The position numbers and the translations under genes are program-made. Shown here piece by piece: positions 4,576 through 4,734 of a stretch of 64,000 nt of DNA. This DNA comes from a candidate division WS6 bacterium OLB20. GTDB lineage: Bacteria; Patescibacteriota; Dojkabacteria; B142; OLB20. The notes beneath the pieces are model-generated. The model saw nothing but the letters and a program-made list of their open reading frames with translations. It was not told where the DNA came from and did no database searches. Location: NCBI GenBank assembly GCA_001567355.1, contig JYNZ01000003.1, positions 338,263-402,262 of the forward strand, read 5' to 3'. Position 1 is the stretch's first letter. Each line of letters begins with the position of its first letter.

Positions 4576-4657
4576 GCAGTCTGAAGATTTTGTAAAACAA
4601 AATCTATTCATACTGCACTCACACCATTGTAATTGCTTGCTATGCAAGCAAACAATG
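4576..4657 (-). repeat. conserved ~80-nt trailer element 3' of tRNA-Ala(GGC)
   Basis: Near-identical to 48031-48110: gcagtctg(a/t)agattttgtaaaacaaaatcta(t/c)tcatactgcactcac(a/g)ccattgtaattgct... Confidence 0.6.
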
Positions 4658-4734
4658 GTGGAGTCGATGGGACTCGAACCCACACTCCCCACTATGCCAT
4701 AGTGGTGCTTTAGCCAGTTAAGCTACGACCCCTC
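4658..4734 (-). tRNA. tRNA-Ala (anticodon GGC), CCA encoded
   Basis: Cloverleaf with G3:U70, anticodon loop ATGGCAT, T-loop GGTTCGAGT, and 3' CCA. Confidence 0.8.

Follow-up and report, generated by a model that had tools for sequence, protein, structure and literature searches.

A putative lineage-specific palindromic unit at the 3' ends of two tRNA-Ala genes of the candidate division WS6 bacterium OLB20

PATEs are non-autonomous derivatives of the IS200/IS605 family. REP sequences are recognized as palindromes of 20-40 nt of which one end bears an unpaired tag, GTAG or CGTC (PMC3733652). These GTAG-tagged palindromes are the hallmark of REPs; they lie mainly 3' of genes and in the gaps between convergent ORFs, and they are associated with RAYTs (PMC3733652, PMC8266576). 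Both REP/BIME and IS200/IS605-derived elements are handled as folded single-stranded DNA by Y1/HUH transposases (PMC3733652, PMC8266576). A different kind of insertion is represented by the genomic islands found at tRNA genes, which carry an integrase gene, regenerate the target and leave a displaced tRNA 3' fragment at the far end (PMC4383910). Here we describe, in a 64-kb stretch of DNA (the window) of the WS6 bacterium OLB20, a unit of ~85-88 nt with two imperfect-palindrome hairpins that, in our best reading, is specific to this lineage. We tentatively propose, with a confidence a little short of even, that this unit is a palindromic miniature repeat derived from REP/BIME or IS200/IS605 elements, which may have been copied onto tRNA-Ala 3' ends and may be transcribed as a hairpin trailer.

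tRNA-Ala(GGC) and tRNA-Ala(TGC), which carry the unit, are minus-strand genes, and their trailers accordingly have lower coordinates than the genes themselves (Table 1). The trailers (4576-4655 and 48031-48110) are identical at 72 of 80 positions (90%), and BLAST aligns them with 90.6% identity over 85 nt (E = 3e-24). The first-pass annotation had reported two tRNA-Ala genes with nearly identical trailers, which is correct, except that it placed tRNA-Ala(GGC) 2 nt off, at 4658-4734. The tRNA bodies are just 71% identical. The similarity therefore extends beyond the tRNA body, to which it might have been confined, and is far above chance, and the unit is younger than the tRNA paralogy. The element is absent from tRNA-Ala(CGC) and tRNA-Ile of the same window. 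It is specific to tRNA-Ala 3' ends rather than a generic post-tRNA sequence. Other details that had been noted for the trailers were recovered as well: the hairpin AGATTTTGT-TTT-ACAAAATCT, whose perfect stem measures 9 bp at tRNA-Ala(GGC) and 11 bp at tRNA-Ala(TGC); the conserved block TGG(T/C)GTGAGTGCAGTATGA, found in both trailers; and the spurious ORFs 4459-4692 and 47914-48141, which exist and have a peptide in common. The DNA that adjoins both copies is indeed lower in GC, as had been claimed, but the AT-rich character is moderate (0.417 for 3447-4575 and 0.445 for 40430-48030, vs. 0.49 for the whole window).

Table 1. Positions of the repeat unit, its parts and fragments, and the genes around them in the window.
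Feature	Positions	Strand	Basis	Remark
tRNA-Ala(CGC)	563-635	minus		third tRNA-Ala of the window
Possible degenerate H2-like copy	832-905	minus	covariance model, 14.7 bits, E = 0.26	
Perfect 18-nt tail copy ATCTTCAGACTGCCTCCA	4513-4530	minus	direct-repeat search	
Repeat unit copy 1, 88 nt, CCA...CAGACTGCCTCCA	4571-4658	minus	alignment, inverted repeats, fold, covariance model	
Copy 1, H2 lower stem	4612-4616/4576-4580			
Copy 1, H2 upper stem	4597-4605/4585-4593			
Copy 1, H1 outer stem	4652-4660/4622-4630			
Copy 1, H1 inner stem	4644-4651/4633-4640			
tRNA-Ala(GGC)	4656-4732	minus	ARAGORN; Rfam tRNA at 61 bits	
Second Y1 transposase-like paralogue	22845-23438	minus	Pfam Y1_Tnp, E = 8.1e-12	
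5S rRNA	26566-26682	minus	Rfam	
23S rRNA	26833-29844	minus		~18 kb past tRNA-Ala(TGC)
Y1 (HUH) transposase-like gene, RAYT-like	46291-46902	plus	Pfam Y1_Tnp, E = 6.9e-11	
Repeat unit copy 2	48031-48113	minus	alignment, inverted repeats, fold, covariance model	
Copy 2, H2 upper stem, 11 bp	48038-48048/48052-48062			
tRNA-Ala(TGC)	48111-48187	minus	ARAGORN and Rfam	encoded CCA
Aldo-keto reductase (AKR) gene	48274-49356			between tRNA-Ile and tRNA-Ala(TGC)
Exact 18-nt tRNA/unit junction copy CTCCACCATTGTTTGCTT	49594-49611	minus	pattern search, BLAST match of 15 nt	
tRNA-like hairpin set, 60 nt	49604-49663			begins 28 nt past tRNA-Ile
tRNA-Ile	49691-49765	minus	ARAGORN/Rfam	
16S rRNA	54771-56277	minus	Rfam	

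The unit is intergenic, non-coding and flanked by convergent genes. On the left, the two copies begin at exactly the same base (CTCCA|CCATT), directly after the discriminator A73, while on the right their boundaries differ, with CTCCA at the GGC copy, where the unit ends in ...GCCTCCA, and TTTCG at the TGC copy. The 90% identity between the copies runs to ...CAGACTGC, past which no similarity is found. A covariance model built from both copies gives 116 bits for copy 1 and 108 bits for copy 2. No TIRs are found in the unit, and its two hairpins, H1 and H2, are mutually dissimilar in sequence. In the tRNA sense, H1 reads CCA-UUGU-[UUGCUUGC-AUA-GCAAGCAA]-UU-ACAAUGG(UG) and is followed by UGAGU and then by H2, which reads GCAGU-AUGA(A/G)U-[AGAUUUUGU-UUU-ACAAAAUCU]-(U/A)CAG-ACUGC. 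The outer stem of H1 (9 bp in the GGC copy) takes in the encoded CCA together with the final two bases of the tRNA. H2 is an AU-rich, two-tier hairpin whose upper stem, perfect and 9 to 11 bp long, is unchanged between the copies; H2 is followed by CAGACUGC, after which the similarity between the copies ends. The motif GTAG is present at the 5' foot of H2 in copy 2, where it is paired (GAGTAG-ATTTTGT...ACAAAAT-CTAC), and is replaced by ATAG in copy 1. Three changes in the inner stem of H1 turn two U-A pairs of copy 1 into tandem G.A/A.G in copy 2, a G to A change in CCAUUGU breaks one outer H1 pair, and no compensatory Watson-Crick covariation is found between the two full, near-identical copies. 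The hairpins appear to be maintained between the copies, and the preservation of H1 and H2 fits a constraint on either a single-stranded DNA hairpin or an RNA hairpin.

A metagenomic relative (L006) provides a putative empty site. Its M23 peptidase is 72% identical to that of the window, and the synteny of the peptidase, upstream, and then tRNA-Ala(GGC) is kept. Despite identity at 73 of 74 positions (98.6%), the tRNA-Ala(GGC) gene of L006 ends in ...CGACTCCA|TATATG, with no CCA and no unit, and the downstream synteny between the window and L006 breaks at the tRNA 3' end. Because the L006 gene ends at A73, the left edge of the unit falls exactly after the discriminator. The unit thus looks like an addition and not like an ancestral tRNA-Ala trailer, the polarity of gain vs. 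loss being read from this one close relative, and the orthologue without CCA and trailer supports a DNA-level, insertion-like origin. Two or three Logan assemblies of the source species (L004, L005 and L011, all of one strain) have the same sequence as the window, and no presence/absence polymorphism was seen among them. In a more distant relative (L010), a two-tier hairpin directly follows tRNA-Ala(GGC). This hairpin and H2 share the 13-mer TTTGTAAAACAAA in opposite orientation, with the loop inverted; such a 13-mer occurs nowhere else in ~64 kb of unrelated loci, and the alignment score was reached by 4 of 500 shuffles. The similarity to H2 is suggestive, and the inverted 13-mer is easier to reconcile with a DNA palindrome than with an RNA motif of fixed orientation.

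The folding of the unit could also be explained if it were a selected RNA element, either a 3' module with a function in tRNA-Ala precursors or a small RNA transcribed along with the tRNA, with the two loci kept alike by selection or gene conversion; we regard this as possible, if on the unlikely side. H1 would then sequester the CCA and the acceptor 3' strand, and H2, with a GA/GA internal loop resembling a k-turn, would bind a protein or block exonucleases. The RNA fold of copy 1 is strong (-40.2 kcal/mol, z = -8.3 vs. shuffles) and that of copy 2 moderate (z = -2.7), the helix of H1 survives its changes, and the central 60 nt hardly vary. Transcription of the unit is to be expected, since each of the two tRNA genes has a promoter-like site of its own and no terminator separates the gene from the unit. 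Moreover, the unrelated trailer of tRNA-Ala(CGC) opens with a hairpin of 12 perfect base pairs in which the tRNA 3' end is paired (z = -5.5), and two-tier hairpins recur at the 3' ends of all three tRNA-Ala genes of the window and in L010. The unit resembles tRNA trailer hairpins and 3' external transcribed spacers in that it belongs to the tRNA transcription unit, directly follows the mature end and has stable hairpins, which might stop exonucleases or be set free as a small RNA. Such trailers are normally locus-specific, whereas the unit is common, at 90% identity, to two unlinked and non-orthologous genes and is missing from the orthologue of a close relative whose tRNA is nearly identical. 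Also against a selected RNA element are the lack of covariation between the full copies, the broken outer pair of H1, the inverted loop of the L010 hairpin and the outcome of the database searches. With Rfam 15 at the gathering threshold, the only matches in the window are tRNA and rRNA, and at E <= 10 the matches are at chance level (22-24 bits vs. the 59-60 needed). The core pattern TGAGTGCAGTATGA...CAGACTG has 0 matches in 185,579 species genomes, a collection outside which the source genome and its relatives fall, as indicated by the anticodon arm of tRNA-Ala(GGC), whose only match there is a chance one in an Acidimicrobiia MAG. In metagenomes the core pattern has one chance match, eukaryote-like and without a tRNA; in the viral collection the core and H2 hairpin patterns have 0 matches; and blastn against GenBank phages found nothing.

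Hairpins directly after genes would also be expected of a shared Rho-independent terminator, which had been suggested in the first-pass annotation, and the reading frames through the unit raise the question of a short coding sequence; we give hardly any credence to either. There is no U-tract, H2 is AU-rich where a terminator hairpin would be GC-rich, and a scan finds 0 terminator-like sites in 4200-5000 and 47700-48500, while canonical hairpin-plus-U-tract terminators are present elsewhere in the window, after the 5S rRNA and after the tRNA-Ala(CGC) region. The frame of the CCA reads ...ASNYNGVSAV-stop in both copies, which is tmRNA-tag-like; four of the six differences in the 51-nt frame are at synonymous third positions, and the last 10 residues are identical. 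Against a coding function, the synonymous pattern has a p of about 0.1 per frame, no start codon is available beyond the tRNA itself, the domains are not arranged as in a tmRNA, where a tRNA-like domain is split around an mRNA-like domain with a resume codon and a tag ORF, and the peptide of a different frame, the long open frame of ORFs 4459-4692 and 47914-48141, has no called homologue in 5.8 billion protein clusters. A tmRNA was rejected: ARAGORN finds none, and the frame follows an intact anticodon-bearing tRNA and so is not deliverable by that tRNA. A relic of a 23S leader was likewise rejected, as the 23S has its own leader/trailer processing stem, which is unrelated to the unit.

The last three bases of tRNA-Ala(GGC), 4658-4656, are an encoded CCA. 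Such a CCA is encoded only at both unit-bearing genes and at the tRNA-like element near tRNA-Ile, and it is absent from tRNA-Ile, tRNA-Ala(CGC) and the relatives L006 and L010. This distribution indicates that the encoded CCA belongs to the unit, so that in tRNA-Ala(GGC) it is part of the repeat and not of the ancestral gene. CCA-containing tRNA insertions are a signature of reverse-transcriptase template switching in Neurospora retroplasmids, and an RNA-mediated origin would account for the restriction of an encoded CCA to unit-bearing sites. In this scenario a reverse transcriptase, by switching templates or by priming on a tRNA, would have joined a mature, CCA-tailed tRNA-Ala, or a tRNA-like RNA ending in CCA, to another template, and recombination would have carried the product into the genes. 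We nevertheless consider such an origin very improbable: no reverse transcriptase domain is found in the scanned ORFs of the window, there is no poly(A) or other retro-signature, and the CCA is explained more simply by its being needed for the pairing of H1.

Full, truncated and degenerate copies of the unit occur close together. Within the 64-kb window and ~8 kb of flanks taken from the Logan assemblies of the same strain, out of a contig of 744,746 bp, we found two full copies and three fragments, all on the minus strand, which is the strand of the rRNA genes and has positive GC skew. The perfect copy of the 18-nt tail is 58 nt downstream of the first tail (4571-4588), and such a duplication is expected for a copied or truncated repeat. 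The first tail is followed by CTCCA|CCAATCG (4563-4575), a second CTCCACCA junction. No second tandem unit is recognized there, since the interior between the two tails (4531-4567) is without significant similarity to unit 1. [quoted passage not shown] The 16-nt junction core CTCCACCATTGTTTGC has 0 mismatches there, and a search that allowed up to 3 mismatches found 5 sites vs. 0.59 expected from shuffles; the left flank CTCCA is fixed at 4 junctions in the window. The third fragment, located 200-270 nt upstream of tRNA-Ala(CGC), reads ..TGCAAAATGAGTAGTTTTTGT[16-nt insert]ACAAAATCTGGAATTGC.. and keeps ATGAGTAG-TTTTTGT...ACAAAATCT with a loop insertion of 16 nt. Its lower stem has a double change from G-C to A-U, and, like copy 2, the fragment carries GTAG at the hairpin's 5' foot. 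The local alignment score is 18.25 vs. 10.9 +/- 1.7 for shuffles, with 0 of 1000 reaching it. As the best non-self match of the window, yet marginal window-wide (E about 0.2-0.3), this fragment is suggestive of a degenerate copy of H2.

An unfiltered covariance-model search of the window and the fetched loci recovered only the two full copies and, weakly, this H2-like fragment. Among the rejected candidates, a covariance-model match at 53070-53129 is a palindrome in signal-peptide coding sequence, a match at 22506-22532 is in sequence that by eye resembles the antisense of a coding region, and the candidate distal repeat TCCACCATTA at 46.9 kb is not above chance.

The junction core also bears on the suggestion of the first-pass annotation that the trailers are att-site remnants. 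In this explanation, which we consider unlikely, the units would be attL-type scars of two related integrative elements, each of which regenerated the tRNA-Ala 3' end with its own copy, CCA included; the 80 nt that are conserved would then represent the arm on the element's side, and everything else in the element would have been deleted or replaced. Several features recall tRNA-targeting islands and prophages (tyrosine-integrase att sites, Islander-type). The unit begins inside or at the extreme tRNA 3' end and brings a different end (CCA), as when a target is regenerated from foreign sequence; the exact 18-nt core is common to two loci with differing flanks; the DNA adjoining both copies is lower in GC; synteny with L006 is lost where the tRNA gene ends; the 3' end of tRNA-Ala(CGC) has a 15-nt direct repeat 133 nt downstream; and the AKR gene that lies between tRNA-Ile and tRNA-Ala(TGC) is located elsewhere in relatives, between RNase H and ClpB and with no tRNA nearby. 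However, no integrase or recombinase Pfam domain is found in the scanned ORFs, which comprise those flanking both copies and most of the large ORFs. No displaced fragment of the tRNA-Ala(GGC) or tRNA-Ala(TGC) 3' end, searched for at a length of at least 17 nt with up to 3 mismatches, is present within ~9.8 kb (GGC) or ~21 kb (TGC) downstream; a tRNA-3'-like 17-mer at 44456, with 3 mismatches and inside a large ORF, was rejected as being at chance level. The ORFs adjoining the two copies are not homologous to each other, only about 80 nt are conserved, and two independent deletions would have to have left the same 80 nt. Nor is there an attP-like match in the viral collection, in which the 103 matches of the junction 18-mer are all in one family of phage protein-coding genes, with none beside a tRNA.

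We favour a miniature palindromic repeat copied at the DNA level over integration scars. The younger age of the unit relative to the tRNA paralogy, its base-identical left edge, the empty site, the duplicated tail, the third junction and the fragments point to DNA-level copying onto ...CTCCA ends. The mobility of the unit, the enzyme that would have acted on it, its transcription and its effect at the RNA level are inferences. The unit would have been copied as DNA onto the exact 3' ends of two non-orthologous tRNA-Ala genes, starting after A73 at CGACTCCA, most likely through mobilisation as folded single-stranded DNA by Y1/HUH (RAYT-like) transposases; for the second copy, microhomology-mediated copying between the identical tRNA-Ala 3' ends would be a simpler alternative. 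Since it lies inside the tRNA transcription unit, the unit is predicted to be transcribed as a 3' trailer. In the transcript, H1 would pair the encoded CCA and H2 would form a stable hairpin, and the hairpins probably either hinder 3' exonucleases or form a processing structure destined for trimming.

The Y1 transposase-like gene at 46291-46902 lies 1.1 kb from copy 2 and would be a candidate for the trans-acting enzyme. It scores 47 bits against the NCBIfam model REP_Tyr_transpos, whose cutoff is 80 bits, and the Y1 proteins of the window are both below the NCBIfam RAYT cutoff. The two paralogues are 55% identical (BLASTP E = 3e-77). In the unfiltered covariance-model search, no unit-like hairpins are found within 1 kb of either Y1 gene.

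The size of the unit, its hairpins, its convergent-gene setting and the GTAG in two copies make it resemble both REP/BIME and IS200/IS605-derived elements. Like REP/BIME, the unit is short, palindromic and non-coding, is downstream of genes and between convergently transcribed ones, is a composite of two hairpins, carries GTAG at the 5' foot in two of the three H2 copies, plausibly appears in transcripts as a hairpin and shares its genome segment with Y1/RAYT-like genes. Unlike REPs, which typically have more than 100 copies, it has two known full copies in the 64 kb and ~8-kb flanks; its stems are AT-rich whereas REP stems are GC-rich; its GTAG is either paired or imperfect; it does not border the Y1 genes, whereas a RAYT gene has its cognate REPs on its flanks; and it abuts tRNA 3' ends to the base, which is no described property of REPs. 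With IS200/IS605 elements, the unit shares two subterminal hairpins, the lack of TIRs and of a clear target duplication, a left junction that always follows the pentanucleotide CTCCA, like insertion 3' of a fixed tetra- or pentanucleotide, and the placement of all copies on one strand; copy 1 itself ends in CTCCA. It differs in that H1 is unlike H2, whereas LE/RE hairpins or REPIN halves resemble each other, in that no full-length IS with such ends is seen in the window, in that the right end is conserved only within the GGC locus and not in copy 2, and in that the local Y1 genes are diverged single genes rather than IS copies.

A more far-reaching version of this proposal would be a miniature CPR mobile element that targets tRNA-Ala 3' ends, or ...CTCCA acceptor-like ends, and writes CCA and a CCA-sequestering hairpin onto them, via either Y1/HUH single-stranded DNA or a CCA-tailed-tRNA RNA intermediate. 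We think this improbable on present evidence, although, if true, such an element would have a previously undescribed target specificity and a direct effect on tRNA 3' maturation. As a palindromic repeat, the unit would show how CCA-less tRNA genes are converted to CCA-encoding ones with reshaped trailers, and, if specific to tRNA 3' ends, it would be among the few families of repeats or mobile DNA described in the very small CPR genomes. As a selected RNA trailer, it would represent a lineage-specific mode of tRNA-Ala 3' processing. Because the evidence comes from one genome, in which the term repeat family refers to fragments within 64 kb, the general importance of these possibilities is modest.

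The rRNA operon of the window is dispersed along the minus strand, with protein genes between 16S, tRNA-Ile, tRNA-Ala and 23S. This break-up is striking, and the unit, if it is a palindromic repeat specific to tRNA 3' ends, may be linked to it.

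The rRNA operon of the window is split by interposed protein-coding genes (table below), and the 23S gene has a leader/trailer processing stem of its own. In relatives, the aldo-keto reductase (AKR) gene found here between tRNA-Ile and tRNA-Ala is flanked by RNase H on one side and ClpB on the other, with tRNA absent nearby. Directly upstream of the 23S gene are four large ORFs in succession, which have no Pfam matches at E <= 0.001 and lie in a stretch where GC skew and AT skew are both strongly negative.

Positions (window coordinates), strands and contents of the features described
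Feature	Position	Strand	Size	Contents
rRNA operon	26566-56277	-		
16S to tRNA-Ile gap		-	~5 kb	MFS transporter, sigma-70 factor, FecR-like
tRNA-Ile to tRNA-Ala gap	within 26566-56277	-		AKR gene
tRNA-Ala to 23S-5S gap		-	~18 kb	include ABC1/M48 protein, 1886 aa
Four large ORFs	30168-39100	-		277, 868, 653 and 1001 aa
tRNA-like candidate	49604-49663	-	60 nt	
tRNA-Ala(CGC) 3' end	563-577	-	15 nt	CTCCCGCCAACTCCA
Its second copy	430-444	-		
CCA frame, unit copy 1	4608-4658	-		
CCA frame, unit copy 2	48063-48113	-		
Direct repeat	6188-6219, 8040-8071		32 nt	AA(A/C)GTAAACGTCACCTGTGAAGGTGACGTTCT
ORFs flanked by this repeat	6316-7536, 7539-8210			
Y1/IS200-like, RAYT-like gene	22845-23438	-		
Y1/IS200-like, RAYT-like gene	46291-46902	+		

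The place usually taken by tRNA-Ala, after tRNA-Ile, is occupied by a tRNA-like RNA candidate that begins 28 nt beyond the tRNA-Ile end. Its acceptor stem (GGGGCU/GGCUCC) carries a G3.U70-type wobble and is accompanied by A73 and an encoded CCA; UUCG caps its long arm, and its T-like arm has 5 bp and a 7-nt loop. The candidate is called by neither ARAGORN nor Rfam, and its fold is not more stable than those of shuffled sequences (z = +0.8). Two possible readings are a tRNA-Ala that has decayed and a minihelix that serves as an alanine acceptor.

The final 15 nt of tRNA-Ala(CGC) recur without mismatch 133 nt downstream, forming an att-like direct repeat around an insert of ~118 nt. The insert opens with a perfect 12-bp hairpin in which the tRNA 3' end is paired, and it also includes a T-loop-like piece, GGGTTCGAC; a U-tract terminator lies beyond the second repeat copy. 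Downstream of its tRNA-Ala(GGC), the metagenomic relative L006, which lacks the two-hairpin unit, has its own ~63-nt tandem repeat (..TTCGTTAGTTCGTTACACTCACTAACTTCGACTAAATGGTAGAT.. x2; L006 1000-1170), and therefore the 3' flanks of tRNA-Ala genes in this lineage seem prone to repeats.

Translated in the frame of the encoded CCA, both copies of the unit give P-L-F-A-(C/S)-(I/R)-A-S-N-Y-N-G-V-S-A-V-stop, and four of the six nucleotide differences between them are synonymous third positions. There is a loose likeness between the final ten residues and a tmRNA tag. Both the synonymous pattern (p about 0.1 per frame) and this likeness are probably coincidental.

Elsewhere in the window, a near-perfect 32-nt direct repeat, a hairpin in itself, flanks two ORFs in a low-GC (0.40) stretch and could be a terminator pair or an insertion boundary. 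The 64-kb window, part of a very small genome, has two Y1/IS200-like genes resembling REP-associated Y1 transposases (RAYT). The two genes are diverged (55% identical), and since their flanks are unlike each other, they do not appear to be recent IS copies.
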